Shown piece after piece: positions 480-63,717 of a DNA stretch of 64,000 nucleotides. The notes beneath the pieces are model-generated. The model searched no databases. It saw only the letters and a list, made by a program, of their open reading frames with translations, and had not been told where the DNA came from. The position numbers and the translations under genes are program-made. Origin of the DNA: Eubacteriales bacterium (GTDB lineage Bacteria > Bacillota > Clostridia > Oscillospirales > CAG-382); the NCBI GenBank assembly GCA_045589515.1, contig JAZNPH010000050.1, forward strand, positions 72,880 through 136,879, given 5' to 3'. The stretch's first letter is position 1; each line of letters opens with the position of its first letter.

Positions 480-3104
480 ATGAGCATGGAACAAAAGGAA
501 AACGGGGAAGTTCTGGAGCAAGCGGAGGTTGAATACCCCCGCAACCCCCACGAGCTGACCGAAGAGGAAAAGAAGGAGATCCTCTCCGTCTTTGCCGAAA
601 CCAACGAGAATAAACGCCGCCGCGCCGGCTTTAAGCTCACCATCAAGAACCAGATCATTCTGGTGGGTGTGGTGCTGGCGGTGGCAGCCCTTCTGCTGGG
701 CTCTTACTTCCTGTTCCTAAAGGAAGAAGCGCCCCTGCCTCCCTTCTACGTCCTGGACGAACAGACGGTTACCGTGCTGGACGAACTGGATGCCGATGTG
801 GAGATCATCTTCTGCAACCGCGTAGAGGGTGAGCTTACCGAGGAGGGAGACCCTGACGTCTACCGCATCTATACCTACGCTACCCTGTACGCAAGCCAAA
901 CGGGAGATGTGGACATCTCCTTCAACACCGGAGATACCTTCAACGGTGTGAAGGTGGTCTGCGGCGGGAAGACCTTGGAATATACCTACGCATCCTTCTA
1001 TAAGAGCCGCCCCGTCGACAACGCCGTCTACGGCTTTGACGGGGAAGCTGTCTTCACCAACGCCATTCTGGAGCTGACCGGCAAGGAAAAGCTGGAGCTG
1101 GCTCTCCGCCCTCTGGACGGCTTTGACAAGGACGGCAACACGGTGCTGGTCTCCGGTGGCGTGGTAATGTTCCCCATGGTCAACAGAAGCGATATCGCTT
1201 ATCTGAATGTGGAGAACGAGCACGGCGAGTACTTGATCTATCAGGAACAGAACGGCACCTTCTACTTCGGCGGGTGCGAATATCTCACCTACAACGCCGA
1301 GACCTTTGCTTCTCTGCTGGTAGATTGCCGCTACGTGATCACCGCAGGCAAGCTGGAGGATCGGTTGGATTACTCCGTGTACGGCTTCGGCAAGGAAGAA
1401 AAGCTGACCTGCCGCTACACCCTCATGACCCAGCCCGCATCCGACGGCAGCTTCTACGTTCATCAGATCCAGATCGGCAAGAAGGCCGCATCCGGGGCGT
1501 ATTACTACGCCATGTACTTTGGCATGAAGATGAAGGACGACAAGGTCATCGAGAACTTCCCCAGCGATAAGATCTTCCTGGTTCCCACCACCAACGTGGA
1601 GGGCAACCTGACCAAGCCCGTGGAGACCTTCTTTGAGGCCCAGCTGGTCAACGGCATCCAGGACGTGAACGAGGTCTACGAGATCGAAAAGGTGGAGATG
1701 GATTTCTTCCACGGAGATCCCGAACAAGACGTCCACGCAGTGATACTGAACCTGCCCGTGCTGGATTTCTCCGACAACGCCTCCTCCAACAACACCTCCA
1801 TCGGCGAGTTGTTGAAGGATAAAAAGAAGTACAACAGCTCCGGCTTGACCTATTCCGACTGGACGGGTGAGATCGACGGTGCCTATATGGCGGGTCTGGC
1901 CAGCAGCGACGGAGAAAACTTCTCCGTTCGTGCGGCTGTGACCAACATCGCTGCAGATGGCGTATACGAATGTACCTTCGGCCTGCTGTTGGATTCCGAC
2001 AACAAGAAGTACGCCGCCATCCTTCCCGAGGAGGTCAGCATCCGCTACTCCTACGACGGAGAAAACTTCAAAAAGCTTTCCGACCACGGCCTGGATTTCT
2101 CCGATCATCGGGAGGATACGGTGAAGGAATACACCTTCCGTATCGAAAGCGACGAGCCCGTGGTGATGGTTGAATTGACCTTCCAAATGCCCAATAAGAT
2201 CGGCTATCTGGTCATGGATGAGATCCTGATCACCGCTGATGGAACGGACGCCGTTCCCAACGACGCTCTCACCGGTCTTTGGCGTCTGGTGGCTCCCTCC
2301 TCCTTTATCCCCGTAGGCAAGAACTACGCCTATATGGATAGCACCAACTTCGCCGAGTTCCTCAACGGCCTTGCCACTCTCAAGGGTGACAGCGTTGCCA
2401 AGGTGGGCATCAGCGAGCACAACAAGGATGCTGACGACACAATCAAGACGGAGATGCTGAAGGAGTTCGGGCTGGATAACCCCGCAATGCACTTCGCATA
2501 CACCTACAAGGGCTTCGTAACGGACGTTTACTTCTCCGCCTACGACGAGGAGAACGGATGTTACTACGCCTACTCCACCATCACCGGTGACTTGTACGAG
2601 GACGGCAGAGTGTTAACCTTCTGCACCGGCATTGTGGCAAGAGTTTCCAAGGAGACCGCGCCCTGGCTGGATTGGGATCTGTTGGAATACGTGGATCACT
2701 CTATGGTGGGTATGTATTTCTACGAGATCCGCGAGCTTTCCGTTTCCTACGGCGGCAAGGAATACGTCTTTGGCGTCACTGCCGAGGATAAGACTCTGAC
2801 CTCCGTCCTGTGGGGCGACAAGGAGATGGACGAGGAAAGCTTCCGCTACCTCTACCTCTCCATCGTTCAGCTGTATATGCGTGACGTATATCAGCCCTCC
2901 GAGGGAGATACTGCGGAAGAATATATGCGCATTAAGATCACCACTACCACGGATGCCAAGGAATACGTCTTCTACCGCGTATCCTCTAGCCGTGCCTACT
3001 ACACCATCAACGGCTCCGGCAGTTACTATTGCCGCGTCAGCGACTTGCGTAACGTCCAGAGCAAGCTGGAGCAGTTTATTGCAGGAGAAAAGGTGGGCAG
3101 ATGA
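480..3104 (+). CDS. large membrane-anchored extracytoplasmic protein of unknown function (possibly DUF4340-type partner of the GldG-like protein)
   Basis: 874 aa. It has an N-terminal TM (IILVGVVLAVAALLLGSYFLFL) and an SD-like AAAGGAAA upstream. Coding-like composition throughout, with no catalytic motif recognised. Confidence 0.6.
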   Translation: MSMEQKENGEVLEQAEVEYPRNPHELTEEEKKEILSVFAETNENKRRRAGFKLTIKNQIILVGVVLAVAALLLGSYFLFLKEEAPLPPFYVLDEQTVTVLDELDADVEIIFCNRVEGELTEEGDPDVYRIYTYATLYASQTGDVDISFNTGDTFNGVKVVCGGKTLEYTYASFYKSRPVDNAVYGFDGEAVFTNAILELTGKEKLELALRPLDGFDKDGNTVLVSGGVVMFPMVNRSDIAYLNVENEHGEYLIYQEQNGTFYFGGCEYLTYNAETFASLLVDCRYVITAGKLEDRLDYSVYGFGKEEKLTCRYTLMTQPASDGSFYVHQIQIGKKAASGAYYYAMYFGMKMKDDKVIENFPSDKIFLVPTTNVEGNLTKPVETFFEAQLVNGIQDVNEVYEIEKVEMDFFHGDPEQDVHAVILNLPVLDFSDNASSNNTSIGELLKDKKKYNSSGLTYSDWTGEIDGAYMAGLASSDGENFSVRAAVTNIAADGVYECTFGLLLDSDNKKYAAILPEEVSIRYSYDGENFKKLSDHGLDFSDHREDTVKEYTFRIESDEPVVMVELTFQMPNKIGYLVMDEILITADGTDAVPNDALTGLWRLVAPSSFIPVGKNYAYMDSTNFAEFLNGLATLKGDSVAKVGISEHNKDADDTIKTEMLKEFGLDNPAMHFAYTYKGFVTDVYFSAYDEENGCYYAYSTITGDLYEDGRVLTFCTGIVARVSKETAPWLDWDLLEYVDHSMVGMYFYEIRELSVSYGGKEYVFGVTAEDKTLTSVLWGDKEMDEESFRYLYLSIVQLYMRDVYQPSEGDTAEEYMRIKITTTTDAKEYVFYRVSSSRAYYTINGSGSYYCRVSDLRNVQSKLEQFIAGEKVGR

Positions 3105-3898
3105 TGAAGAAGGCGTATCTGAAGATCGCCTCCTGTATGATCGCAGCAATGCTTTTACTGACCGCTTGTCAGCAGAAGCCTGACGAGGGTGTGTATCACA
3201 CCCTCGTTTCTCTTCATGAGAGCTACAACGAGATACAGCGGGGAGAGATCGGCTTCCTCATGGAGGCTTCCTTTGCGGATGATGACACCGGGGAGGCAGG
3301 GGTTCTCTATTTTATACAGGGAAACGCCTGCTATGACAGAGCCTCGGAGACCGCTTGGCAAAAATACACCGCCACTCTGTTGGCATCAACCTACAGCAGC
3401 GAGGAGTATTACGCAGACGGAGTGAAAAAGCATATTGAAGGCGGCGAGATCTACGACCTGGAGGCTCCGTCGGAGGAATTCTTCGATGCCTTTCCTTATT
3501 GCCGTCTGCCTTTGCCCGGGTTCGACACCATCACAGCCTTGACGGCGGAGGAGACCGACGGAGGGATTCTTTACACCCTGGTGGCAGAAGCGGGGCAAAA
3601 AGAATTGGTGGAGGAGGTCTGGAAGACGGATCTCTACACCCTTGCGGGGATCCGTGTGCCGGATCGGGACAAGGAGTCCTACGGCGACGTGACCTATACC
3701 TTTTCCGTGAAGGACGGCAAGGTACAGTCCATTTCGGTGAAGCTGACGGTCTCTCTCTTCGAGACGGCGGCCTACACCCCCGGGTATACCCCCGACACAG
3801 AGGATCTGCGGCTGGACTTGACCTTGACGGCTAAGGTGACGGTGAAAAATACCGGGGAAACGGTCACCGTCCCTGCATATTCGGAGGAACAGACGTGA
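3101..3898 (+). CDS. lipoprotein, function unknown
   Basis: Signal peptide with lipobox, MMKKAYLKIASCMIAAMLLLTAC. The ATGA overlap with the upstream stop suggests coupling. Confidence 0.75.
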   Translation: MMKKAYLKIASCMIAAMLLLTACQQKPDEGVYHTLVSLHESYNEIQRGEIGFLMEASFADDDTGEAGVLYFIQGNACYDRASETAWQKYTATLLASTYSSEEYYADGVKKHIEGGEIYDLEAPSEEFFDAFPYCRLPLPGFDTITALTAEETDGGILYTLVAEAGQKELVEEVWKTDLYTLAGIRVPDRDKESYGDVTYTFSVKDGKVQSISVKLTVSLFETAAYTPGYTPDTEDLRLDLTLTAKVTVKNTGETVTVPAYSEEQT

Positions 3899-13338: not shown

Positions 13339-14465
13339 CGTTTCAATTTCGCGCATTCCCGCAAAGCATCGCAAAGCAGAGCGCATTCCTCTCCGGTATT
13401 TCTGATATCAAAGCTCAGTCGCAGGGAGGTCTCGATCTCCTCTGCAGGCAACCCGAAGGCAGACAGCACGGGGTTGCCTTTTTTCTTTTCCCTGGCGGAG
13501 CAAGCGCTTCCGGCGGAAACGCAAATTCCTTTTGCCGCAAGGAAGTTTAACGCCCAGGAGCTGAGCACTCCGGGGATGCTGATGTGCAGGATATTGGGCA
13601 GATGCACGGGAGGGATATGCAGGATCACCCCGCTGCCCTCCAGCCCGTTGACCACCTGCTCCCGCAGGGAGGCCAGGTAGGGGAGACGTTCTTTGTCATT
13701 CCACGCCTTTTCCGCCGCTGCGCCGAAGGCGGCAATGGCAGGCACGTTTTCCGTGCCGGAGCGCAGACCGTTTTCCTGTCCGCCCCCCAAAAGATAGGCA
13801 GGCAGATTGCGGATCTTTTCGCTGACATACAATGCTCCCGCGCCCTTCAGTCCGCCGATCTTATGGGCGGAGAGGGTCACCAGGTCGCAAATGCTTGCAA
13901 GACGGTCGTTTTCGATCTTCAAAAAGCCCTGGACCCCGTCGCAATGCAGGGGGGCATCCGTGCCGCAGAGGGTCATGATCTTCCGCACCCTCGCCAGATC
14001 GTACACCGCACCGGTCTCGTTGTTGGCCCGCATGATGGAAAGGAAAGCCACAGGCTCTTGAAGCTCGTTCTTCAACCGATCGAGATCCAATACGCCGCCC
14101 TTGGTGGACAAGCGCACAACGGAAAAGCCTTCCTTCTCCAAGGTCTTCAAAGGCTCTGCCACGGAAGGATGCTCGCTGTCGGTGGTGATGATCTTCTTCG
14201 CCCGCTTGCCCCTGGTCTTTGCCAGACCGAAGATGGCTTGGTTGTTGGCCTCTGTGCCGCAGGACACGAAGGTGATCCGTTCCGGCTGACAGCGCAAAGC
14301 AGTCGCCACCTGCCTGCGGGCGGTATCCACCATCCCCTTGGCGGCAAGACCCGCCCCGTGGAGGGAAGAAGGGTTGCCGTATTCGGTATATGCACGCTCT
14401 GCCGCCTCCAACGCTTCCTTCACGGGAGGCGCCGTGGCCGCAGAATCAAAATAAAGATATGCCAT
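13335..14465 (-). CDS. cysteine desulfurase (NifS/NifZ-like, partner of ThiI)
   Basis: YFDSAATAP, GNPSSLH, SAHKIGG (PLP Lys), and the active-site region SAGSACS. Confidence 0.9.
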   Translation of the reverse strand: MAYLYFDSAATAPPVKEALEAAERAYTEYGNPSSLHGAGLAAKGMVDTARRQVATALRCQPERITFVSCGTEANNQAIFGLAKTRGKRAKKIITTDSEHPSVAEPLKTLEKEGFSVVRLSTKGGVLDLDRLKNELQEPVAFLSIMRANNETGAVYDLARVRKIMTLCGTDAPLHCDGVQGFLKIENDRLASICDLVTLSAHKIGGLKGAGALYVSEKIRNLPAYLLGGGQENGLRSGTENVPAIAAFGAAAEKAWNDKERLPYLASLREQVVNGLEGSGVILHIPPVHLPNILHISIPGVLSSWALNFLAAKGICVSAGSACSAREKKKGNPVLSAFGLPAEEIETSLRLSFDIRNTGEECALLCDALRECAKLKR

Positions 14466-14494
14466 GTTGTTACTCCGTTTTGCGGTATCGTCCT

Positions 14495-14523
14495 ATTGTA
14501 ACACGCAAAAGCGGTTCCGTCAA
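14495..14523 (-). promoter_or_regulatory. sigma-A promoter for the desulfurase-thiI pair
   Basis: On the minus strand: TTGACG, 17 nt spacer, TGT-TACAAT. Confidence 0.5.
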
Positions 14524-14619
14524 CCGTTTTTTGCACCCCTTTTCGGGAAAAGTGGCCGGGATAATCATTAACAATTTGTAAATTTTTGCTTTTCGCTTGC
14601 CTTGTGCCAAAATTTCCTA

Positions 14620-14648
14620 TTTACAGAAAGGAAAAAAAGGAGTATAAT
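14620..14648 (+). promoter_or_regulatory. sigma-A promoter for rny
   Basis: TTTACA, 17 nt spacer, TATAAT. An approximately 125-nt leader follows, containing the hairpin ATCGAA/TTCGAT. Confidence 0.5.
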
Positions 14649-14777
14649 GTGGGTTGATCGAATGCTTTTTCGATTTTATATAGATGTGACATAGATGTAC
14701 AACCCAAAAAGCGCAGAATGCATTCCATATAGAATTCGGGAAAGCATAGGTTTGAATATATATCAGGAGGCAAATCT

Positions 14778-16328
14778 ATGGGACCCTTTGAGATTGCTGT
14801 CACCGTCGGCGCCGCCGCCGTTGCAGCCGTGGTCTTCTTTGTGATCGGTTATTTCCTTCGGAAAGCCACCGCAGAGAAGAAGATCCATTCCGCCGAAGCG
14901 GAATCCAAGAGACTGGTAGACGAGGCGAAGAAAGATGCCGAGGCTGCCAAAAAAGAGATTCTCGTCGAAGCCAAGGACGAGGCATTCAAGATCAAGAACG
15001 AAGCTGAGCGCGAAGCGAAGGAACGCCGTACCGAGGTACAGCGTCAGGAGCGCCGCGTTTCCCAAAAAGAAGAGAACTTAGACCGCAAGCTGGAAAACCT
15101 TGAAAAGAAGGAAGAGCAGCTGAACAACAAGATCAAAGCCAACGAAGAACGTAAGGTGGAGATCGAAAAGTGCATTGCAGAGCAAAGCGAGCTTCTCCAG
15201 CGCATCGCAGAGATGACCATGGAGGAGGCACGCGACGAGCTCATGTCCCGCGCCGAAAGCGAGACCCGCCACGAGCTGGCCATGAAGCTTTCCGAGCTGG
15301 AAGAGGAATACAAAGAGGTGGCAGAGGATAAGGCGAAGAACCTCATCGCCCTGGCCATCCAGCGTTGCGCCGCGGACAGCGTTTCCGAACAGACTGTTTC
15401 CGTGGTTGCCCTGCCCAACGACGAAATGAAGGGCCGTATCATCGGCCGCGAGGGCAGAAATATCCGTGCTATCGAGACCTTGACCGGGGTTGACCTGATC
15501 ATCGACGATACTCCCGAGGCCATTGCCATCTCCACCTTCGATCCCGTACGGAGAGAGGTTGCCCGTCTGGCGCTGGAGAAGCTGGTCTCCGACGGCAGAA
15601 TCCATCCCTCCCGTGTGGAAGATATGGTGGAAAAGTGCCGCAAGGAAGTGGACGTTGCCATCAAGAAGGCAGGCGAGCAGGCCACCTTCGAGACGGGTAT
15701 CCACGGTTTGAACCCCGAGCTGATCAAGCTTCTGGGCAGACTGCGCTACCGTACCAGTTACGGCCAGAACGTACTGCGCCACTCTATCGAGGTATCCTTG
15801 CTTTCCGGCATGATCGCCTCCGAGCTGGGTGTGGACGTGAACATGGCAAAGCGTGCAGGTCTGTTGCATGATATCGGTAAGGCCATGACCCACGAGATCG
15901 ACGGCTCTCACGTACAGATCGGTGTGGACATTGCCCGCAAGTATAAGGAATCCAAGGACGTGATCCACGCCATCGAGGCGCATCACGGCGATGTGGAGCC
16001 TACTACCTACATTGCCATGATCGTCCAGGCGGCAGACGCCATCTCCGCGGCTCGTCCCGGTGCACGTCGCGAGAATCTGGAAAACTACATCAAGCGCTTG
16101 CAGAAGCTGGAGGAGATCGCGAACTCCTTCAAGGGTATCGAGAAGGCCTTCGCCATCCAGGCAGGCCGCGAGATCCGCATTATGGTCAAGCCGGACGAGG
16201 TGTCGGACGACGAGATGATCTTCCTGGCACGGGACATTGCCCGCAAGGTGGAATCCGAGCTGGAGTATCCCGGTCAGATCAAGATCAACGTTGTGCGTGA
16301 GACCCGCCAGAGCGAATACGCAAAGTAA
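14778..16328 (+). CDS. rny: ribonuclease Y
   Basis: N-terminal TM, a long Lys/Glu coiled coil, KH domain ([15 protein letters not shown]), and HD domain (LLHDIGKA). Confidence 0.96.
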
Positions 16329-20094: not shown

Positions 20095-20108
20095 TTGTTA
20101 ACAATTGT
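20095..20108. promoter_or_regulatory. conserved overlapping palindromes TTGTTAACAATTGT upstream of cassette promoter 1 (candidate operator)
   Basis: TTGTTAACAA and ACAATTGT are each perfect palindromes. The identical 18-mer GTTTTGTTAACAATTGTA recurs at 21923-21940. Confidence 0.4.
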
Positions 20109-20126
20109 ATTTTTTCATGGTCGCAG

Positions 20127-20155
20127 TTGACATTGTTTTGGGTTTATGGTATAGT
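20127..20155 (+). promoter_or_regulatory. near-consensus sigma-A promoter P1 of cassette 1
   Basis: TTGACA, 17 nt spacer, TATAGT. About 65 nt around it are almost identical to 21960-22020. Confidence 0.6.
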
Positions 20156-20178
20156 GAAACCATAAGGAGGGGAGTCCA

Positions 20179-20217
20179 ATGGCTCATATTTTCGTTTTTT
20201 CATCGGTTACATTGTAA
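20179..20217 (+). promoter_or_regulatory. candidate leader mini-ORF 1 (MAHIFVFSSVTL)
   Basis: AAGGAGG SD (20164-20170), 8 nt, ATG, 12 codons, TAA. It lies about 65 nt upstream of the cassette-1 gene. Confidence 0.35.
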
Positions 20218-20284
20218 ACGACTGCTCGGAAAGGAGCTTCGATCTGCAGATCGGGTAACGCATCTGTCGGATCGTGAGAATCGT

Positions 20285-20707
20285 ATGAAAAAGAGAAACA
20301 TTGTTATCCTGCTTGGCTATTCGGTTCATTTGATCTTTGCTTTGACAATGTGGATTGCCGATATTTATATGGATGGTTGGTATTGGCCGAGAAATGGCCT
20401 TGTCTTGATTTTGGCTTATGCTATGTCATTGCCTTTTGTTACCGGCATCCTGTCTTTGCTGGACTTCGGAGCCTCGTTCCTGCCTTCCATGCGCTATGGC
20501 ACCGTTTGGCGCTGCTTGTTCGGAAGCTTTGGAATGTTGACGCTTTTGCTTTACGCCGACGCCTTTTGGTGGCACCCGCTGACGGAGTTCCACACCCACG
20601 TGGGAGTTGTCTTGACCCTTGCTATCTGGGTCTGCTGGATCGTTCGCTTCGTGAGCGATCGCCGCAAAAATTGCAACCAAACGGTTGCGGAGGGAGTAAT
20701 ACAATGA
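20285..20707 (+). CDS. 4-TM membrane protein, unknown function (cassette 1 cargo)
   Basis: 140 aa starting MKKRNIVILLGY. Hydrophobic segments and Trp-rich. Visibly AT-richer than the flanks. Confidence 0.6.
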   Translation: MKKRNIVILLGYSVHLIFALTMWIADIYMDGWYWPRNGLVLILAYAMSLPFVTGILSLLDFGASFLPSMRYGTVWRCLFGSFGMLTLLLYADAFWWHPLTEFHTHVGVVLTLAIWVCWIVRFVSDRRKNCNQTVAEGVIQ

Positions 20708-21657
20708 AGAAAAGAATATTTTCACTTTGCCTGTGCTTGGCAATAATGCTGGCATTGGGTTTAACTACAGTGGGCGCAGCAACTTCCGAAGAAATGGTGT
20801 ATGCCTCCGAGGATGTTCGGGAGACTTTGTACGCCGCGACGCAGGAGGAATCCTTTGATTGCTTTAATATTCTGGAACTGTATGGTTGGAAGATCGTAAA
20901 GGAGTCCATTACGGTGGTGTATACCATTGATATGGAAGAATTGGCGGATAACGGCAAATTGGTTGTGGAGCCTGGGTTTGACGAAGATACAGATGACGGA
21001 AGAGTATACATCGCTAAGCTCGTTGATGAAGAGGGTGAATACGTCGGTAATCTCGGCCTTAAAATCGAAGATGGGATTGCCTTCGGGCACTTTTATGACG
21101 GTACCCCTGAGACGCAAGCTCAAAACGGGAAATACCGTGCCTCCAGCAGTTACGCAGACCACGCTGTCAGAATTCAAAATATGCTGAAAACATCGGATTT
21201 TGTTTCGGTTTATGACGTGAAATACATACAGGTATCCCGTGTCGGTTGGTTCTTTTATATTGAAAATCAAGACGAGCCTGTTATGATTCCGGTTGGTTAT
21301 GTGAACGTTGAACCGTCGGACAACACAGAAAATTGGTGGACGGTTGAGAAACTGAAAGAACAGGTTGGCATCATCGTAGAGTGGAAGCGAGAGCAGAAGG
21401 CGTTCAAAGAAGCGTGGGAAGCGGAACACCCCGGAGAGGCGTTCAGTTATGCGATAGGAGGGCCGTCGGTTACCACTGCCGGCGGCGGTTGCGGCCCTAT
21501 CGATAATATCCTGAATATTGATGAATACTTAGGCATCGGCAATGAATCGCAATACAAATTGCCTTTGATCTGCGGCGCATTGGCTGTGATCGTTCTTTTG
21601 GCAACCGGAGCGGGGCTGTATTACCGCAAGTGCCGAAAAAGTAAATTGAGCTCATAA
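20704..21657 (+). CDS. secreted, C-terminally membrane-anchored protein, unknown function (cassette 1 cargo)
   Basis: ATGA-coupled. Signal peptide MKKRIFSLCLCLAIMLALGLTTVGAA and C-terminal TM LICGALAVIVLLATGAGLYY followed by RKCRK. Confidence 0.65.
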   Translation: MKKRIFSLCLCLAIMLALGLTTVGAATSEEMVYASEDVRETLYAATQEESFDCFNILELYGWKIVKESITVVYTIDMEELADNGKLVVEPGFDEDTDDGRVYIAKLVDEEGEYVGNLGLKIEDGIAFGHFYDGTPETQAQNGKYRASSSYADHAVRIQNMLKTSDFVSVYDVKYIQVSRVGWFFYIENQDEPVMIPVGYVNVEPSDNTENWWTVEKLKEQVGIIVEWKREQKAFKEAWEAEHPGEAFSYAIGGPSVTTAGGGCGPIDNILNIDEYLGIGNESQYKLPLICGALAVIVLLATGAGLYYRKCRKSKLSS

Positions 21658-21664
21658 AGCATTA

Positions 21665-21692
21665 AAACCACCGAGTTGCCTCGGTGGTTTTT
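21665..21692. terminator. bidirectional terminator at the end of cassette 1
   Basis: ACCACCGAG-TTGC-CTCGGTGGT, flanked by AAAA on one side and TTTT on the other. Confidence 0.6.
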
Positions 21693-21696
21693 CGTC

Positions 21697-21805
21697 TCAA
21701 AACTCCCCTAACAGTTTATACACGGTGCAGATGGGCAGACCCACGATGGAGAAGTAGTCCCCCTGGATCTTTTCCACCAGGATGCACCCCTTGCCCTGAA
21801 TGCCG
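21697..21805 (-). pseudogene. maf 3' fragment (last 36 codons plus stop)
   Basis: 105/109 nt identical to 22482-22590. It encodes [35 protein letters not shown]. There is no 5' part. Confidence 0.85.
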
Positions 21806-21873
21806 CAGGGGACACCCCCATGGAGTCCATCGCATACTCCGCAACCTATATGAACACCCTTTTGGGAAGATAA
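21805..21873 (+). pseudogene. 3' fragment of the sugar phosphate isomerase gene (last 22 codons plus stop)
   Basis: 69/69 nt identical to 19981-20049. It is joined to the maf fragment through the shared TGCCG (21801-21805). Confidence 0.85.
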
Positions 21874-21881
21874 AACAGCAA

Positions 21882-21912
21882 GACTCCGCCTAACAAGCGG
21901 AGTCTTTGTTTG
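21882..21912 (+). terminator. terminator copy after the isomerase fragment
   Basis: GACTCCGC-CTAACAA-GCGGAGTC followed by TTTGTTTG. It differs from the 20058 copy by compensatory stem changes. Confidence 0.5.
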
Positions 21913-21926
21913 TGGGGAAGACTGTT

Positions 21927-21940
21927 TTGTTAACAATTGT
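21927..21940. promoter_or_regulatory. second copy of the TTGTTAACAATTGT palindrome
   Basis: Same sequence and a similar distance (19-20 nt versus 18-19 nt) to the -35 as in copy 1. Confidence 0.4.
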
Positions 21941-21959
21941 AAAGTTTTCATCCCCGCCG

Positions 21960-21988
21960 TTGACATTATTTTGGGTTTATGGTATAGT
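21960..21988 (+). promoter_or_regulatory. near-consensus sigma-A promoter P2 of cassette 2
   Basis: TTGACA, 17 nt spacer, TATAGT. Confidence 0.6.
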
Positions 21989-22011
21989 AAAATCGTAGGG
22001 AGGGGAGTCCA

Positions 22012-22035
22012 ATGGATCATGCATCTGCTTTATAA
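22012..22035 (+). promoter_or_regulatory. candidate leader mini-ORF 2 (MDHASAL)
   Basis: AGGGAGG SD, 8 nt, ATG, 7 codons, TAA. The first three codons are conserved with mini-ORF 1 (ATG GMT CAT). Confidence 0.3.
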
Positions 22036-22105
22036 AGTAAAAATGGTCCTTGTTGCAATCACGATGCGTTGGCGGCATCGGAGCAATATATAGGAAGGAG
22101 CTATT

Positions 22106-22441
22106 ATGTTTATCCTTGAATTCCTTTTTAATGAGCCCATACTTGCATTTGTGGTGGGATCTCTTTTGGCAATTGCTGTTTATAAAATGCAATTGCTTCT
22201 GTGCCGAAAGGTGAAACACCTGCAGATCAAGCTGGTTCCGCTGTATCTCTTTCTGGCACTGTTTGTTTTTCTCGCATTGCTGTACGTGGGCGTTTTCACC
22301 GGTCGATCCGAGGGGTTGGCAAACGTGAATGAACTCGTTGCGTTCATCTTGGCTATTGCATTCGGGATCCCTTTTATAGGCGTTTGCGCCGCTTGGGTGG
22401 TTCATTGGAGAGCAATGCAACAAGCACAAGTCAACTCATAA
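22106..22441 (+). CDS. 3-TM small membrane protein, unknown function (cassette 2 cargo)
   Basis: 111 aa. AGGAAGGAG SD. AT-richer than the flanks. Confidence 0.6.
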   Translation: MFILEFLFNEPILAFVVGSLLAIAVYKMQLLLCRKVKHLQIKLVPLYLFLALFVFLALLYVGVFTGRSEGLANVNELVAFILAIAFGIPFIGVCAAWVVHWRAMQQAQVNS

Positions 22442-26483: not shown

Positions 26484-28217
26484 ATGGCAAAGTTCAGCAT
26501 CGGCGTTATGACCGACTCCTTCAAGCTTCCCTTTGAGCAGGGCTTGGCAAAGGCCGCTGAGGTAGGTGCTCAGGGCATCCAGCTCTACGTGGTGGACGGC
26601 GAAATGAAGTACGACACCTTTGACGACGCAAAGGTTGCCCGCGTACGCGCTCTGTTGGAGCAGTACGGCCTGGTGATCTCCGCAGTTTGCGGCGATTTCG
26701 GCGGCCATGGCTTCGAGCGTGCAGACGAGAACGCATGGAAGATCCCCGCCTCCAAGGCAGTGGCAGATCTGGCCGTCCGTTTGGGCACCAAGGTGGTTAC
26801 CACCCACATCGGCGTAGTTCCCGAGGATCCCGCAGACCCCGCAAAGGCAGATACCGCCTGCGAGGCTTACCACAACATGGTTGCCGCTTGCCGTGAGATC
26901 GGTGAGTATGCCGCTTCCATCGGTGTGACCTTCGCCATCGAGACCGGTCCCGAGCCTGCAGAGCGTCTGAAGGCCTTCCTGGACGACGTGAACAGCAAGG
27001 GCTTCGGCGTCAACATGGATCCCGCTAACCTTGTTATGTGCACCGGTACCGACCCCGTTGCCGCAGTTTACACCCTGGGCAATTACATCGTTCACACCCA
27101 TGCCAAGGACGGCAAGGGCTTCATCATCGATCCCCGCAAGGTATACACCTTCTTCGCAGAAGGCGGTATCGAGGATCTCCGTCTTTCCGATTACTTCCTG
27201 GAGGTTCCTCTGGGCGAGGGCAACGTACCCTTCGACGCGTATCTGAAGGCTTTGGAGGATATCGGCTTTAACGGCTTCTTGACCGTGGAGCGCGAGTGCG
27301 GCGAGGATCCCTATGCGGACATTCTGAAGGCCGTGAACTTCTTAAAGAGCAAGATCGGCGACAAGAAAGTGAAGAAGATCGGCTTTATCGACTACTTCCT
27401 GGAAGAGTGGCACGCTCTCAACTATCCCCAGTTCATCCGCAATGCAGACCCGGATTGTGAGTTCGTAGTGGCTTACGCCTACGCAGAGCTGGATAAGAAG
27501 CCCGGCGGCAACATGACCACCGACGAGTTCTGCGAAAAGTTCGGCATCCAGAAGTGCGATTCCATCGAAGAAGTGGTGGAAAAGAGTGACTGCCTGGTAG
27601 TTATGAGTCCCGACAACCCCGAAAGACACTGGGATCTCTGCCAGCTTCCTCTCCGTAGCGGCAAGCCCGTTTACGTAGACAAGACCTTCGCCCTCACCAA
27701 GCAGATCGCCATCGACCTGGTGAAGCTGGGTGAAGAGAACAACACCCCCTTCTTCTCCTCCTCTGCTCTCCGCTTTGCAGACGAATTGAAGACCCTTTCC
27801 AAGGAAGGCATCGTATACATCAACTCCCGCGGCCCCGGTAACTTCGACACCTACGCCATCCACCAGCTGGAGCCCATGCTCATGCTGATGGGCAGCAACG
27901 TCAGCCGCGTCATGTCCATCGGCAGCGGCAAGTACGAATCCATGGTGCTGGAGTTTGCCGACGGCAGAAGTGCCGTGATGTCTCACTACGGCTGGAACGG
28001 CGGTATCGACTTTGAGTTCGTGGCAAGCTATGCCGACGGCACCAACGTGAAGATCCCCGCTATGTCCAATACCTTCCCCAACTTCATTGCCTCCATGCTG
28101 GACTTCTTCCGCACCGGCAAGATCTACGCCGCTCACGACGAGACCGTAGCCATCATGGCGGTCATCGAGGCGGGCAACCGCGCCCTCAAGACTCCCGGCG
28201 TCTGGGTTGAGGTTTAA
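26484..28217 (+). CDS. fusion protein: xylose-isomerase-like TIM barrel (aa 1 to about 290) plus a Gfo/Idh/MocA-like domain lacking the GxGxxG loop (aa about 295-577)
   Basis: The N-terminal half has TIM-barrel sugar isomerase/epimerase features (..THIG.., FAIETG, NMDPANL, HAKD, LTVERE). The C-terminal half starts KKIGFIDYFLEEWHALNYP, then ..VVMSPDNPERH..SGKPVYVDKTFA. Confidence 0.7.
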   Translation: MAKFSIGVMTDSFKLPFEQGLAKAAEVGAQGIQLYVVDGEMKYDTFDDAKVARVRALLEQYGLVISAVCGDFGGHGFERADENAWKIPASKAVADLAVRLGTKVVTTHIGVVPEDPADPAKADTACEAYHNMVAACREIGEYAASIGVTFAIETGPEPAERLKAFLDDVNSKGFGVNMDPANLVMCTGTDPVAAVYTLGNYIVHTHAKDGKGFIIDPRKVYTFFAEGGIEDLRLSDYFLEVPLGEGNVPFDAYLKALEDIGFNGFLTVERECGEDPYADILKAVNFLKSKIGDKKVKKIGFIDYFLEEWHALNYPQFIRNADPDCEFVVAYAYAELDKKPGGNMTTDEFCEKFGIQKCDSIEEVVEKSDCLVVMSPDNPERHWDLCQLPLRSGKPVYVDKTFALTKQIAIDLVKLGEENNTPFFSSSALRFADELKTLSKEGIVYINSRGPGNFDTYAIHQLEPMLMLMGSNVSRVMSIGSGKYESMVLEFADGRSAVMSHYGWNGGIDFEFVASYADGTNVKIPAMSNTFPNFIASMLDFFRTGKIYAAHDETVAIMAVIEAGNRALKTPGVWVEV

Positions 28218-28226
28218 GTTCTGACC

Positions 28227-29276
28227 GTGGCCGGTATGCAAAAGGGTATCCTGCTGTACACAAGCTATTGGGGCTACAGCGGAACCAAATATTACGTACC
28301 CACCGATGAGGAGCTGCAAAAGCTCCTCTCTTCCTCCGACGAGATCCTGCTGATCCCCATCGCCGCCTTCAACCGCTACAAGGATGAAGAGGGCAACGAA
28401 AAGCAGGTCTTGGACGAGAATACCCTGTCTTCCATGACTCCCGATATGGTGGGGGATCCCGCCATGCTGGAGACCATCAAGGCCGAGTATGCGCCCCGTG
28501 TGGAGACTTATCTCCGTGCCAACTTCCATATGGACGACTACGTGGAGGACGCCGTGGCCTACGCCAGACGGCTGGTGAAGCTGAACCCCGCTGTAAAGCT
28601 GTGGTTCTCCGTTCCCCACGAGGGCTGTCTCCACGCCCTGACCCATCTGTTTGCAGATGCCTGGGTGTACGCCGTTCACCGTGTGAAGGAAGTTTTAGAG
28701 CCGGAGATCTGGGAAAACAACGTGCAGGGCATCTACTTCTCCTTGGAGGACATCGTCACCGCCTACTACACCAAGTTTGATCCTTCCTGTCCCCAGGAGG
28801 ATTTCCACAGCCCCATGGTGTATTCCATGCGCAGGGTTTCCGATGTGGCCCACAGCTACGGCAAGGAATGCCTGTGGATCCCTTACTATCACGGTGCCGC
28901 CTGCTCCCATACCAATCTGGGGCACGTGGTCAACCGCACGGACATCTTCGACACCGTCATCATCCAGCCCTCCTATTTCTTCCGTGCAGAGCGGACGCCG
29001 GAGCTGGGCATCGTGGCGGAATGCGTGAGACAGCAGCAGGTCATCGATACCGACGGCAGTGTCATCGGCGGGGAAAAGACCTCCAAAACCGTCATCGGCT
29101 TCGAGATGGAGATCGACCACCAGTTCTTCGACAAGGAAGATTACAAGGAGCGTTACTTCGCTTACGAGAAGGCCTTCGGCGAGTTCGTAGGGAAGTATCC
29201 CACCGCCTACTACGCAGGCTGTCCCGACACCGCCGTGAAGGTGGCAGACCTGATGAAGAAGTTTTTACAGCAATAA
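28227..29276 (+). CDS. hypothetical protein, possibly glycosidase-like (resembles DUF4855-type proteins; low certainty)
   Basis: 349 aa with coding-like composition. The start is uncertain (GTG 28227 or ATG 28236). It is in the same frame as the upstream gene, separated only by TAA. Confidence 0.55.
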   Translation: MAGMQKGILLYTSYWGYSGTKYYVPTDEELQKLLSSSDEILLIPIAAFNRYKDEEGNEKQVLDENTLSSMTPDMVGDPAMLETIKAEYAPRVETYLRANFHMDDYVEDAVAYARRLVKLNPAVKLWFSVPHEGCLHALTHLFADAWVYAVHRVKEVLEPEIWENNVQGIYFSLEDIVTAYYTKFDPSCPQEDFHSPMVYSMRRVSDVAHSYGKECLWIPYYHGAACSHTNLGHVVNRTDIFDTVIIQPSYFFRAERTPELGIVAECVRQQQVIDTDGSVIGGEKTSKTVIGFEMEIDHQFFDKEDYKERYFAYEKAFGEFVGKYPTAYYAGCPDTAVKVADLMKKFLQQ

Positions 29277-29320: not shown

Positions 29321-30790
29321 TTATTTCTTTTTCTTTCTGATCATCCACACCGCAAGGCCTGCCAGAAGGACGACTCCTGCCCCGACGGGGAGCAGAATTT
29401 TCCAAAGTGTACTTTCTTCTGTGGGGAGAGGGGTGGGCGTTGTGCTTTCGGGGAGGCTTTCTGCCTTGCTTTCCCCTTCGCTTTCGGCCTCCGAGGTCTC
29501 GGTCTCAAGGTAGGTTTCCTTGTAATAGGCGCTTTCCGTGTAGGTCTTCAACATTCCCAGCATAGCCCCTGCTTCGGAATTGTAGAAGGGGTAGGGATAG
29601 CCCTTGGTGCCGAAGGTGGTGCGGATCATACGGATATACGTCTCCAGCCGTTCGTAGTCACCCATGGTGGCCGCAACCCCTGCGATGGATGCCCAGGGGA
29701 AGGTGTCTCCCGTTTTCAAGACCTGCCACCCCTTTGCCTTGGTGCCGAAATGGCGGTTGAATTTCTCGTAAAGCGCCTCTGCCCGTTCCCCGGCGGGGTC
29801 GATCACCCCTGCAGAGATGGGAAACAGCTGGGCGGCGGCGTCGGGATAAAAAATATTCCAATCGGGCTTTGCAGGCTTGTTGCCGTCGGCGAAAACGTAG
29901 GGATAGTAAGCTCCGTTCTCTTCGGACCAGAGATGCTTTTCAATGGCGGCCTTCACCGTCTCCGCAAGACCTGCCAGCTCCTCTGCCAAAGCCTTGTCGC
30001 CGTAAAGCTCCTTCATCAGCTTGGAAGCCGCCACAAGCCCGTCGTATACCTCGCAGTTGTCCATCAGGTAGCAGACCATGTAGTTGGGCTTGGCACCCGT
30101 CAGACCCAGGGCGGGAACGTAGGTGGATCTCAAGGCGTTCAGTACCCGCAGAACCTCCTCCTTCTTATCCGCCAGGAAGTCTCCGCCGTAGTTTTTGTGG
30201 TATTCGTACAGCACCCGCAGGAAGCAGGCGGCGTAGGAATCGGTGGAATCGTAATCGTAGGGATTGTCTGCAGGGTTTGCCGGGTATTGATGGGCGTGGA
30301 ACTGACGGACGGTCACCTCCACGATATGATCCTTGTCCTTAGGATCCACAAAGCAATAGTAGTCGTAGACCGTGCCGTCCACGCCGTTGATATCGGCGGC
30401 TTGGTCGTTTAAGTGGGCAAAATACCAGCCGATGAACCGCTCTGCAGGCTCCTTTGCTTGCTCCGGAGAGGCCTTCAGCATCCCCAGAATGGAAAGCTGG
30501 GAAAAATAGGGAACGATCTTGGCAAAAGGCCATTTGGTATACACCTCCGGGGCAACGCCGTCCACCGTCTCCAGATGAGAGGTGTCCGTCACCATCGCGG
30601 AAGTAGGTTTGCTCATGGGAAAAGCCCCGTTTGCCAGCACCAGACCGTCAATGTATTCCGTCAGATCGGAAATCTGTTCTTCTGCCACTTCGTTCACTCC
30701 TTTTTGCGCGCTAACTCCCGTGAGGGGAACCACCGTCAAAAGCAAGACCGCCAATACTCCCACCGTCAGTCGCTTGAACAATCCTTTCAT
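29321..30790 (-). CDS. secreted, membrane-anchored protein, probably an (alpha/alpha)6-type glycoside-hydrolase-like fold
   Basis: Signal peptide MKGLFKRLTVGVLAVLLLTVVPLTGVSA. Aromatic-rich repeats (DSTDSYAACFL, YPYPFYN). A Ser/Glu/Thr/Pro linker, a C-terminal TM, then RKKKK. Confidence 0.6.
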   Translation of the reverse strand: MKGLFKRLTVGVLAVLLLTVVPLTGVSAQKGVNEVAEEQISDLTEYIDGLVLANGAFPMSKPTSAMVTDTSHLETVDGVAPEVYTKWPFAKIVPYFSQLSILGMLKASPEQAKEPAERFIGWYFAHLNDQAADINGVDGTVYDYYCFVDPKDKDHIVEVTVRQFHAHQYPANPADNPYDYDSTDSYAACFLRVLYEYHKNYGGDFLADKKEEVLRVLNALRSTYVPALGLTGAKPNYMVCYLMDNCEVYDGLVAASKLMKELYGDKALAEELAGLAETVKAAIEKHLWSEENGAYYPYVFADGNKPAKPDWNIFYPDAAAQLFPISAGVIDPAGERAEALYEKFNRHFGTKAKGWQVLKTGDTFPWASIAGVAATMGDYERLETYIRMIRTTFGTKGYPYPFYNSEAGAMLGMLKTYTESAYYKETYLETETSEAESEGESKAESLPESTTPTPLPTEESTLWKILLPVGAGVVLLAGLAVWMIRKKKK

Positions 30791-59490: not shown

Positions 59491-62298
59491 ATGAAAGATT
59501 ACAAAGATACGTTGAATCTTCCCGTCACAGCCTTCCCCATGCGAGGGAATCTCCCCGCCAGAGAGCCGGAGTTCAAAAAGCGCTGGGACGAGATGGATCT
59601 TTACAAAAAGATGCTGGAGGTCAACGAGGGTAAGCCCTCCTTCATCCTCCACGACGGCCCTCCCTTCTCCAACGGTAACATCCACATGGGCCACGTGATG
59701 AATAAGGTGCTGAAGGACATGGTAAATAAATCCAAGTCCATGGCAGGCTACCGTACCCCCTTCGTTCCCGGCTGGGACAACCACGGTATGCCCATCGAAA
59801 GCGCCATCATCAAGCAGTCCAAGCTGGATCGCAAGCGTATGTCCATCCCCGAGTTCCGCTCTGCCTGCAAGGATTTCGCCATGAAGTTCGTGAAGCTGCA
59901 GAGAGAATCCTTCGAGCGTCTGGGCATCGTGGGGGATTGGGACGAGCCTTACCTCACCATGAACCCCTCCTTCGAGGCAAAGGAAGTCCGCGTTTTCGGC
60001 AAGATGTTCGAAAACGGTTATATCTATAAGGGCTTAAAACCCGTTTATTGGTGCGCCCACGACGAGACTGCTCTCGCTGAGGCGGAGATCGAGTACAAGG
60101 ACGCTCCCTGTACCTCTATCTACGTCAAATTCCGCGTTGCGGACGACCGGGGCAAGCTGGCAGACAGAGTGGATCTTTCCAAGACCTATTTCGTGATCTG
60201 GACCACCACCCCCTGGACTCTGCCCGGTAACGTTGCCATTGCCGTTCACCCCCGTGAATCCTATTGCATCGTCCGTGTAGGCGAGGAGAATTACATCATC
60301 GCCGAGGCGTTGGTAAACGACACCATGGCAAACGCAGGGATCGAAAATTACGAGATCCTTTGCAACGACCTCATCGGCTCCGACCTGGAGTACATGACCG
60401 CACAGCACCCCTTCCTGGACCGTACCAGCCAGCTTTGCGTGGCAGACTACGTTACCATGGACAGCGGTACCGGCTGTGTTCACACCGCTCCCGGCTACGG
60501 TGCGGAGGACTACCTCACCGGTATGAAGTACAAGTTGGAGATTTTGGTTCCCGTGGACGACAAGGGTTACCAGGGTGAGGCGGCAGGTAAGTTTGCAGGT
60601 CTGCGCTACGATGAGTCCAATCAGGCAATTCTGGAGGATATGAAGGAGTCCGGCGCTCTGCTGGCTTCCAAGGAGATCATCCACCCCTATCCCCATTGCT
60701 GGAGATGTAAGCATCCCATCATCTTCCGTGCCACTCCCCAGTGGTTCTGCTCCGTTGAGGCCTTCCGCGAGGACGCGGCAAAGGCTTGCGACAGCGTGAC
60801 CTGGATGCCCGCATGGGGCGGAGAACGCATGGTTTCCATGATCAACGAGCGCGCAGACTGGTGTATCTCCCGTCAGCGTCATTGGGGTCTGCCCATTCCC
60901 GTTCTTTATTGTAAGGATTGCGGCAAGCCCATCTGTACCGAAGAGACCATCAACCATATCTCTGCCGTGTTTGAGGCCGAAGGCTCCAACGCATGGTTCG
61001 AGAGAGAGGCAACCGGGCTTCTTCCCGAGGGCTTTGCTTGCCCCGATTGCGGATGCAAGTCCTTCGAGAAGGAGACCGATACTCTGGACGGCTGGTTCGA
61101 TTCCGGCTCCACCCACTTCGACGTGCTGGATGGCAGAGACGGTCATTCCCGTCCCGCAGATCTGTATTTGGAGGGCGGCGACCAGTACCGCGGTTGGTTC
61201 CAGGCATCTCTGTTGACCGCCATCGGCTCGGGTCTGGGAGAGGCACCCTATAAGGCAGTTCTCACCCATGGCTGGACGGTGGACGGCGAGGGTAAGGCAA
61301 TGCACAAATCCTTGGGCAACGGCGTAGAGCCCGAGTCCATCATCAAGGTCTACGGCGCGGATATCCTCCGTCTGTGGGTGGCTTCCAGCGATTACCGCGT
61401 AGACGTTCGCTGCTCCGACGCCATCTTCAAGCAGCTTGCGGAAAGCTACCGTAAGATCCGTAACACCTGCCGTATCCTGCTGGCAAATCTGGGGACTCCC
61501 GATACCGACTTCGATCCCGCAAAGCATATGATCCCCGTGGATCAAATGGAAGAGATCGACCGTTGGGCGCTCTCCCGCCTGAATGCACTGGTGGCTTCTG
61601 CCCGCAAGGCATACGACAATTACGAATTCCACGTCATCTGCCATGACGTATTGAATTTCTGTGCCATCGATATGTCCAAGCTGTATATCGATATCACCAA
61701 GGATCGTCTGTACTGCAACCGCAAGGACGCTCCCGAGCGCCGCAGTGCCCAGACGGCGATGTATCTCATCGTCAAGTCTCTGGCCAAGCTGTTGGCACCC
61801 ATCCTCTCCTTCACCGCAGAGGAGTTGTGGAGCTTTATGGCTCTCTCTGAGGGGGACAATACCGACTCCGTTCTTTGTAACGAGCTGCCCTCCGTCAACG
61901 AGACTTATTACAACCCCGAGCTGGAGGCCAAGTACGAGGGTCTGTTCCGTTACCGTGACGACGTGATGAAGGCTTTAGAGATTGCCCGTGCCGCTAAGGT
62001 CATCGGTAAGTCTCTGGAGGCCAAGGTCACCCTCTACGGAAAGGCAGATAACGAGGCTATGAAGCTGTTCTCCGCTCATCTTGACGAGCTGGAGGAGCTA
62101 TTCATCGTCAGCAAGGTGGCGCTTTCCGGTGAGGACGCTCCCGCAGAAGCCTTTGCCGAGACCGAAAGCGGCGTTGCCGTTCTGGTGGAAGAGGCAGAAG
62201 GGGAGAAGTGCGTCCGTTGTTGGGCGTATCGCGACGATTGTACCCACGATGAGGAAGGGCAGTGCCTCTGCGCACGTTGCCGTGAGGCTGTATGCTGA
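59491..62298 (+). CDS. ileS: isoleucine--tRNA ligase
   Basis: 935 aa. HMGH (PFSNGNIHMGH), KMHKS (KAMHKSLGN), and a C-terminal Cys cluster. Confidence 0.97.
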   Translation: MKDYKDTLNLPVTAFPMRGNLPAREPEFKKRWDEMDLYKKMLEVNEGKPSFILHDGPPFSNGNIHMGHVMNKVLKDMVNKSKSMAGYRTPFVPGWDNHGMPIESAIIKQSKLDRKRMSIPEFRSACKDFAMKFVKLQRESFERLGIVGDWDEPYLTMNPSFEAKEVRVFGKMFENGYIYKGLKPVYWCAHDETALAEAEIEYKDAPCTSIYVKFRVADDRGKLADRVDLSKTYFVIWTTTPWTLPGNVAIAVHPRESYCIVRVGEENYIIAEALVNDTMANAGIENYEILCNDLIGSDLEYMTAQHPFLDRTSQLCVADYVTMDSGTGCVHTAPGYGAEDYLTGMKYKLEILVPVDDKGYQGEAAGKFAGLRYDESNQAILEDMKESGALLASKEIIHPYPHCWRCKHPIIFRATPQWFCSVEAFREDAAKACDSVTWMPAWGGERMVSMINERADWCISRQRHWGLPIPVLYCKDCGKPICTEETINHISAVFEAEGSNAWFEREATGLLPEGFACPDCGCKSFEKETDTLDGWFDSGSTHFDVLDGRDGHSRPADLYLEGGDQYRGWFQASLLTAIGSGLGEAPYKAVLTHGWTVDGEGKAMHKSLGNGVEPESIIKVYGADILRLWVASSDYRVDVRCSDAIFKQLAESYRKIRNTCRILLANLGTPDTDFDPAKHMIPVDQMEEIDRWALSRLNALVASARKAYDNYEFHVICHDVLNFCAIDMSKLYIDITKDRLYCNRKDAPERRSAQTAMYLIVKSLAKLLAPILSFTAEELWSFMALSEGDNTDSVLCNELPSVNETYYNPELEAKYEGLFRYRDDVMKALEIARAAKVIGKSLEAKVTLYGKADNEAMKLFSAHLDELEELFIVSKVALSGEDAPAEAFAETESGVAVLVEEAEGEKCVRCWAYRDDCTHDEEGQCLCARCREAVC

Positions 62299-62825
62299 TC
62301 GCAGTCCTTTCCGTCCTCTTTGGCTCGGTGATCTTGGATCAGGTTACCAAGGCCATCGTGGTCTCCCAGATGGAGCTGTATGAGGAAGCGGCGTTTCTGC
62401 CCGGACTTGTACGGTTCTACCACACCCGCAACACCGGCGCGGCCTTCAGTATGTTCTCCGACAACCGTTGGGTGTTCATGGTGTTCTCTTTGATCGCCAT
62501 GGTGCTGATGACCTATTTGCTGGTAAAGTTCCACGGAAGACATTGGATGCTTTCCGTTTCCCTGGCGGCTGTGCTGGGGGGCGGCATCGGCAACATGATC
62601 GACCGTGTGCTTTGCGGCTACGTAGTGGATTTTCTGGATTTTCAGTTTATGAAGTTTGCCGTGTTCAACGTGGCGGACATCTTTGTCACCTGTGGCTCCG
62701 TGGCTTTGGCGGTGTATATCATCTTTATTGAACCCAAGGTGGAGCGCCGTCTGCAGGAGCAAAAGACGGCAAATACCGTCCCGGAGGAGGCTCCCTGTGA
62801 AGGAAACGACGACGGTGACAAGTGA
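62292..62825 (+). CDS. lspA: signal peptidase II
   Basis: DQVTK, NTGAAFS and FNVADIFVTCG motifs. Confidence 0.93.
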   Translation: MLIAVLSVLFGSVILDQVTKAIVVSQMELYEEAAFLPGLVRFYHTRNTGAAFSMFSDNRWVFMVFSLIAMVLMTYLLVKFHGRHWMLSVSLAAVLGGGIGNMIDRVLCGYVVDFLDFQFMKFAVFNVADIFVTCGSVALAVYIIFIEPKVERRLQEQKTANTVPEEAPCEGNDDGDK

Positions 62826-63717
62826 CCTGTCCGGCAAACGGCTGGACGTTTGGCTTGCGGAAGCGGCGGAGATCAGCCGCTCCAGAGCTCAACAGCTTAT
62901 CGAAGGCGGGGAAGTTCTGCTGAATGGCAAGGTCGCCAAAAAGCGAGATACGGTCTTCCAAGGGGACGAGGTGACTTACGAGATCCCCGAGCCTGAGGAG
63001 ATCGAGGCTGTTCCCCAGGATCTTCCCATTACCATCGTATACGAGGACGACCATTTGCTGGTGGTGGACAAGCCCCAGGGAATGGTGGTACATCCTGCTC
63101 CGGGGAATCCCGACGGCACTTTGGTAAACGCCTTGCTGTACCATTGCAAGGGAAGGCTTTCTTCCATCAACGGCATGGTGCGGCCGGGTATCGTCCACCG
63201 CATCGATTAGGATACCTCGGGTCTGCTCATCGTGGCCAAAACCGATGAAGCCCATCGGGGTCTGGCAGAGCAGATCGCCGTCCACAGCTTTGTCCGCCGC
63301 TACGAGGCGGTGTGCGTGGGTAGCTTCCGCGAGGAGGCGGGGACGGTGAACGCCCCCATCGGCAGGAGTAAAACCGACCGCAAGAAAATGGCGGTGACAC
63401 AGGAAAACTCCAAGCCCGCCGTCACCCATTATCGGGTGTTGGGGGAAACGAAAAACAAGATGTATTCGCATCTGGAGCTCACTCTGGAAACAGGGCGTAC
63501 CCACCAGATCCGCGTGCATATGGCCTATATGGGGCACCCCGTGGCGGGAGATCCCGTGTACGGCACCGAAAAGCACCGTTTGGGGCTTTCGGGACAATGT
63601 CTGTTTGCAAAATTTATTCAATTTACTCATCCCGTTACCGGTGCGGTTTTGGCTTTTGAAGCGGATCGCCCACAGTTTCTCAGGGAAACTCTGCAGAAGC
63701 TCGGGATCGGAGGCTAA
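62797..63717 (+). pseudogene. rluD: 23S rRNA pseudouridine synthase RluD, interrupted by one in-frame TAG (63208-63210)
   Basis: GTG start after a GGAGGAGG SD. S4 domain (RLDVWLAE..SRS). Then RPGIVHRID-TAG-DTSGLLIVAKTDEAH. Both halves are in the same frame with no other lesion. Confidence 0.85.

Follow-up and report, generated by a model that had tools for sequence, protein, structure and literature searches.

Does a single in-frame TAG in a conserved ribosome-modification gene reflect a change in the meaning of that codon, or has the gene simply been broken, either in the cell or during sequencing and assembly? This question is raised by a Clostridia chromosome fragment of 64,000 nt (hereafter the window, i.e. 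the whole stretch of DNA that was analysed), in which a gene for an RluD-like 23S rRNA pseudouridine synthase is interrupted by TAG at a position otherwise occupied by lysine, and in which no gene ends in TAG. The features relevant to this question are as follows.

59491–62298, + strand: ileS, isoleucyl-tRNA synthetase gene, intact (orthologue of 935 aa, tRNA-synt_1 family)
62292–62825, + strand: lspA, signal peptidase II gene (Peptidase_A8), intact (177-aa orthologue in the related locus L082, PF01252)
62783–62799, + strand: Shine-Dalgarno sequence GGAGGAGG (62783–62790), 6-nt spacer and GTG start codon (62797–62799), read from the sequence
62797–63717, + strand: RluD-like 23S rRNA pseudouridine synthase gene (RluA family, S4 plus PseudoU_synth_2 domains), from translation and profile matches
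62797–63210, + strand: N-terminal fragment of 137 aa, the expected translation product, with the S4 domain (aa 15–59) and the first third of the catalytic domain
63205–63207, + strand: GAT, encoding Asp137, the catalytic Asp of the HRxD motif (Asp139 of Escherichia coli RluD), from the alignment to 7bl5, profile NF008385 and PMC5449589
63208–63210, + strand: in-frame premature TAG, codon 138, which encodes Lys (AAG/AAA) in relatives
63232–63717, + strand: downstream ORF of 161 aa, starting at an internal GTG in the same frame, with the rest of the catalytic domain and without the catalytic Asp

Inspection of the sequence and its translation confirmed that a TAG at 63208–63210 breaks rluD, as the initial annotation had reported, and that the two ORFs which it had noted on either side (62656–63210 and 63232–63717) share one frame. 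Translated in that frame, the gene consists of 306 sense codons followed by a TAA stop (63715–63717), with one internal TAG in the codon context CAC CGC ATC GAT TAG GAT ACC TCG (about 63199–63221). Reading through from the GTG at 62797 yields MVRPGIVHRID, then the stop, then DTSGLLIVAKTDEAHRGLAEQ, so that the stretch ID-stop-DTSGLLIVAK spans the lesion. The remaining parts that had been described as intact, namely the Shine-Dalgarno sequence, the GTG start, the S4 domain and the RTHQIRVH block (within GRTHQIRVH of the read-through protein), were all recovered by sequence, translation and domain matches, and the gene contains no frameshift. The same GTG is used as the start in the gene calls of relatives, all of 306 aa (e.g. 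protein P0013, which begins VKETTT). The two strands of the window contain 601 TAG trinucleotides, only one of which, that in rluD, is preceded by 60 stop-free, coding-like codons; it is also the only within-gene stop of any type in the window, all others being located at gene boundaries. Being unique both among the 601 TAGs and among all stop types, its occurrence inside a gene is more than a chance observation.

The gene lies in a compact cluster. The order ileS-lspA-rluD, with rluD placed straight after lspA, is found in the window and in relatives; the first 29 nt of rluD (62797–62825) are shared with the 3' end of lspA, and ileS and lspA overlap by 7 nt (62292–62298). This overlap arrangement is common to all relatives, and such tight packing of the three genes probably results in their translational coupling. 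Downstream of rluD the relatives carry transketolase genes and genes for NIF3, NFACT (RqcH-like), a flavin reductase and a SPOUT methyltransferase (RlmH family). In L082 the NFACT/RqcH-like and SPOUT_MTase (RlmH-family) genes are located at 13529–16296, about 3–6 kb past rluD, which in our case corresponds to a region beyond the window end.

Elsewhere in the window, about 50 other genes compared with Pfam either belonged to the housekeeping set of a Clostridia chromosome or had no match. Three ORFs (20105–20707 and 20350–21657 on the + strand, and 21977–22429 on the − strand) have a third-position GC of 0.46–0.56, compared with about 0.72, and no Pfam match, and the ORFs of 20105–22429 were not accepted by a codon-usage gene caller; this segment may have been acquired as a small island, or it may not be coding at all. 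Three further large genes are confidently coding and match no Pfam family at E <= 1e-5 (480–3104, + strand, 874 aa; 3101–3898, + strand, 265 aa; 29321–30790, − strand, 489 aa). At 26484–29276 a 577-aa AP_endonuc_2 gene and a 349-aa DUF4855 gene lie in the same frame, separated by TAA and 9 nt, and this pair was treated as an ordinary gene boundary.

The identity of the interrupted gene was established by profile searches. An S4 domain (PF01479) is present at aa 15–59 with 39.9 bits (cut-off 22.8), and the catalytic domain (PF00849) is recognised with 122.8 bits in the public protein P0001, which has the sequence of the read-through product, with Lys at the position of the stop. The RluA-subfamily profile TIGR00005 was passed with 308.1 bits (cut-off 192.7), and the NCBIfam RluD equivalog NF008385 gave 269.4 bits, below its cut-off of 351; strictly speaking, the gene product is therefore an RluA-family, RluD-like enzyme. 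RluD is still the best-scoring specific model, RluC reaching a lower score of 134 bits. Bacillus subtilis YlyB/RluD is presumably among the closest known systems; among solved structures, the best match is E. coli RluD (E = 3.5e-66, residues 4–300 aligned; PDB 1V9F, 2IST, 1QYU, 1PRZ, 7BL5). The window gene and E. coli RluD share the architecture of S4 followed by PseudoU_synth_2, the GRTHQIRVH block, and the HRxDKDTSG motif including its catalytic Asp; the window gene differs in scoring below the RluD equivalog cut-off and in being cut by TAG after the catalytic Asp.

The position of this Asp requires a correction, since the initial annotation had placed it after the interrupted Lys codon. In the alignment to chain 7 of 7bl5 (native numbering), residues H134-R135-I136-D137-K138-D139 correspond to H136-R137-L138-D139-K140-D141 of E. 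coli RluD, whose catalytic residue is Asp139 (PMC5449589). The catalytic Asp of the HRxD motif is thus D137, which precedes Lys138, and in agreement with this the NF008385 profile match reaches position 139 at the final residue of the 137-aa fragment. It follows that the stop falls directly after the catalytic Asp137, with which the truncated product ends.

Under the standard bacterial code, translation would end at this point, and the 137-aa product, comprising the S4 domain and about one third of the catalytic domain, would be unable to form an active site. When the fragment was compared with Pfam, S4 was matched and PF00849 scored just 19.8 bits, under the cut-off; owing to the TAG at codon 138, no uninterrupted frame in this gene copy covers both domains. 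The 161-aa downstream ORF would hardly compensate for the loss. It lacks the catalytic Asp, and the AGGA nearest to its GTG at 63232 is located at 63209–63212, 19 nt upstream, which leaves it without a well-spaced ribosome-binding site. Judging from its domain content the truncated protein is predicted to be inactive, and this prediction is unaffected by the correction of the catalytic residue.

Comparison of rluD in the closest genomes, which had been put forward as a means of judging the stop, revealed the TAG in none of them. In eight related DNA loci, whose identity ranges from 99.4% down to about 94%, codon 138 is AAG (6 loci) or AAA (2 loci). The closest of them, L001 (SRA run SRR13390173), differs by 9 mismatches over 1445 nt without gaps (99.4% identity) and has a Lys codon. 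Given AAG or AAA in the related DNA, the change AAG to TAG amounts to one A-to-T transversion, as originally proposed. At the protein level, a homologue search covering 5.8 billion proteins yielded about 38 public proteins that are 93–100% identical over nearly the full length (37 of 306 aa and one of 299 aa), and Lys occupies position 138 in all 12 of these close homologues that were read. More broadly, the residue following HRxD is K in 127 and R in 2 of the 129 motif-matching sequences among 135 fetched homologues. In an exact look-up, the 137-aa and the 161-aa fragment each gave a single record, both from the same NCBI contig (241,815 bp), from which the window evidently derives. The TAG is confined to a single assembly. 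The named relatives are metagenome-assembled genomes (MAGs) labelled Clostridia, Ruminococcaceae or Oscillospiraceae, originating from ruminant and other animal guts. The exact TAG allele was not found in JGI metagenome contigs, and the Lys allele was found there in one contig, which is not from a close relative; as this species is barely represented in the collection, the JGI allele scan is uninformative.

Some members of the homologue cluster are 123–133 aa long, and recurrent loss of rluD was considered as an explanation of their length. This was rejected, as both examined cases proved to be artefacts. In L089 (1236–2158) a scaffold gap of 10 N puts the two parts of rluD out of frame and so creates the apparent split, and L090 (1–1563) is a chimeric 1.5-kb contig with 0.68x coverage that mimics a truncated rluD.

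The pattern of substitutions provides an estimate of the age of the lesion. Within rluD there are 7 differences from L001, comprising 6 synonymous changes and the nonsense; of the changes private to the window with respect to all eight relatives, 4 are synonymous third-position substitutions and the fifth is the A-to-T at 63208. No private missense or indel was found in rluD in the comparison with the eight related loci. Since the private changes are synonymous apart from the nonsense, either purifying selection acted on this gene until very recently or the stop is not real. Such a pattern, together with the restriction of the TAG to one assembly, bears out the suggestion of the initial annotation that either a nonsense mutation of very recent date or an error in base calling is involved. 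The two same-frame ORFs, which are called separately, might also be taken for an old pseudogene or for a natural two-part split enzyme of this lineage. We regard this as so improbable as to be negligible: a decayed gene is at odds with the lack of private missense changes and frameshifts in the window copy, all relatives have a single 306-aa gene, and the second ORF is devoid of both the catalytic Asp and a properly spaced ribosome-binding site.

It is also necessary to consider that the TAG might be decoded, with full-length RluD being produced by means of a suppressor tRNA, pyrrolysine insertion, loss or weakening of RF1, or near-cognate read-through. Pyrrolysine (UAG) decoding occurs in Bacillota, e.g. 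in Desulfitobacterium and Acetohalobium, and there is a likeness to such systems in the in-frame TAG and the rarity of TAG stops; moreover, the TAG replaces Lys, and pyrrolysine is a derivative of this amino acid. The stop codon usage of the window appears at first sight to point in the same direction. According to the codon-usage gene caller, its 62–63 genes end in TAA (30–31) or TGA (32) and never in TAG, an outcome with P = 0.0016 if the TAG rate of 9.7% observed in 61 loci of related families is applied.

The window thus indeed lacks genes ending in TAG, as had been claimed, yet this lends little weight to read-through. Genomes of the order differ strongly in how often they use TAG: in the same 61 loci, taken from a genome contig scan whose listed matches have at most 71% protein identity, 22 have no TAG stops, compared with 10.9 expected under a uniform rate, and from this over-dispersion it follows that genomes with few TAG stops are common in the order. 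In relatives that are about 94% identical, about 1 gene in 21 ends in TAG (a small sample), and at this rate the probability of finding none among 63 genes is about 0.045. The zero count in the window is thus probably a consequence of infrequent TAG use in the lineage and not of recoding. Furthermore, these relatives end a conserved 239-aa gene in TAG, with a TAA located 3 codons further on in L082 and L084 and 8 codons further on in L087. A TAG-ended gene with a backup TAA suggests that TAG terminates translation in this lineage.

Other features expected of a reassigned or pyrrolysine-encoding TAG were likewise not observed. Reassignment would place many in-frame TAGs at conserved positions, and the TAG in rluD is the only one within the 63 window genes (about 19,000 codons). 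A pyrrolysine codon would be conserved among relatives and would typically reside in mtmB, mtbB or mttB; the rluD TAG is not conserved, AAG being present instead even in the 99.4%-identical strain, and lies outside any methylamine methyltransferase gene. When about 50 genes of the window were compared with Pfam, neither a Pyl family nor a methylamine methyltransferase was matched. The window shows no pylT or pylSBCD, and tRNA genes are absent from it and from 11 fetched loci (10 of close relatives). The gene for RF1, prfA, is not among the genes of the 64-kb window. There is no indication of a read-through-stimulating RNA element 3' of the TAG, as the downstream sequence folds no better than shuffled sequences (z = −0.65). 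A literature search for natural UAG reassignment in cellular bacteria retrieved only UGA cases, engineered strains and eukaryotes.

One route to partial read-through deserves mention. Loss of the helix-69 pseudouridines impairs termination in E. coli K-12, so that an rluD nonsense allele could partly promote its own read-through. Taken together, these observations leave the proposal that the TAG is read through or suppressed unsupported, and we consider production of full-length RluD from this gene to be very unlikely. Less probable still is the broader notion that the strain tolerates or decodes UAG (the rluD TAG then standing for Lys, Gln or Tyr) and that the lineage is moving towards a TAG-free or reassigned code. 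The lack of the TAG in every related genome examined speaks for a recent knockout or a sequence error and not for a code change.

It remains to weigh these two possibilities. The substitution itself, its restriction to one assembly and the intactness of the remainder of the gene are matters of observation, and on balance we favour a recent, strain-private nonsense variant, in which an A-to-T substitution would have converted Lys138 (AAG) to TAG in one strain or population. That the variant is genuinely in the DNA is suggested by the quality of the assembly: in a window of such clean appearance, a real variant is more likely than a noisy consensus. No frameshift or other internal stop was detected in the 63 window genes, the Pfam matches of the scanned genes are largely complete, and in the 10 kb shared with relatives 6 of 8 genes have the same length, the other two differing just in the predicted start.

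The alternative is that the T at 63208 is an artefact: the base was miscalled, the consensus is wrong at this position, or the assembler picked a rare allele, and the dominant rluD is intact with AAG. This is a substantial possibility, which we nevertheless judge not to be the probable one. The TAG allele is recorded in a single assembly, every other copy of the gene has Lys, rluD shows no further damage, and when a broadly conserved housekeeping gene carries a nonsense in one assembly only, the pattern is also that expected of an error. In addition, the breaks in L089 and L090 demonstrate that artefactual interruptions of rluD do occur in such data. Against an error stand the otherwise accurate-looking window and the gap-free match to L001. 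The rluD differences from that locus, all synonymous except the nonsense, resemble real divergence rather than noise. The length of the contig (241.8 kb) suggests adequate coverage, and there is no homopolymer at 63208.

The favoured nonsense variant resembles the ordinary nonsense pseudogenes of bacterial genomes and MAGs, which likewise arise by a single substitution in an otherwise intact gene, are absent from the closest relatives, and are split into two ORFs by annotation. The sole distinction is that a widely conserved ribosome-modification enzyme has been hit. We regard the rluD TAG as an ordinary, assembly-private nonsense substitution and not as a feature of the genetic code.

If the mutation is real, the strain would be expected to lack the helix-69 pseudouridines (positions 1911, 1915 and 1917 in E. 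coli), bar traces resulting from near-cognate read-through; tblastn found no rluD paralogue in the 64,000-nt window. By analogy with laboratory mutants, loss of rluD may be tolerated, one of the possibilities listed in the initial annotation. As summarised in PMC5373646 (citing O'Connor and Gregory 2011), the severe phenotype of E. coli rluD mutants is specific to the K-12 variant of RF2, and rluD knock-outs of E. coli and Salmonella with wild-type RF2 are viable with minimal effects. The dispensability described there makes a natural null allele plausible. These knock-outs differ from the present case in being engineered deletions in Proteobacteria, whereas here a natural allele in Clostridia is concerned.

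The overall significance of this finding is small, and lies chiefly in a useful negative result on apparent recoding. An in-frame TAG at a conserved residue, combined with a lack of TAG terminators, mimics a recoded genome, and it is the near-identical strains that reveal a private nonsense. For annotation, we recommend either marking this rluD as a pseudogene that contains an internal stop or verifying the base in the reads. If real, the allele would mean that an uncultured Clostridia strain of the ruminant gut carries a natural null of a conserved enzyme of ribosome modification, in agreement with the laboratory finding that RluD is dispensable under normal RF2. RlmH methylates pseudouridine 1915, which is made by RluD; should the null be real, the RlmH-family enzyme of this strain would thus be deprived of its substrate.
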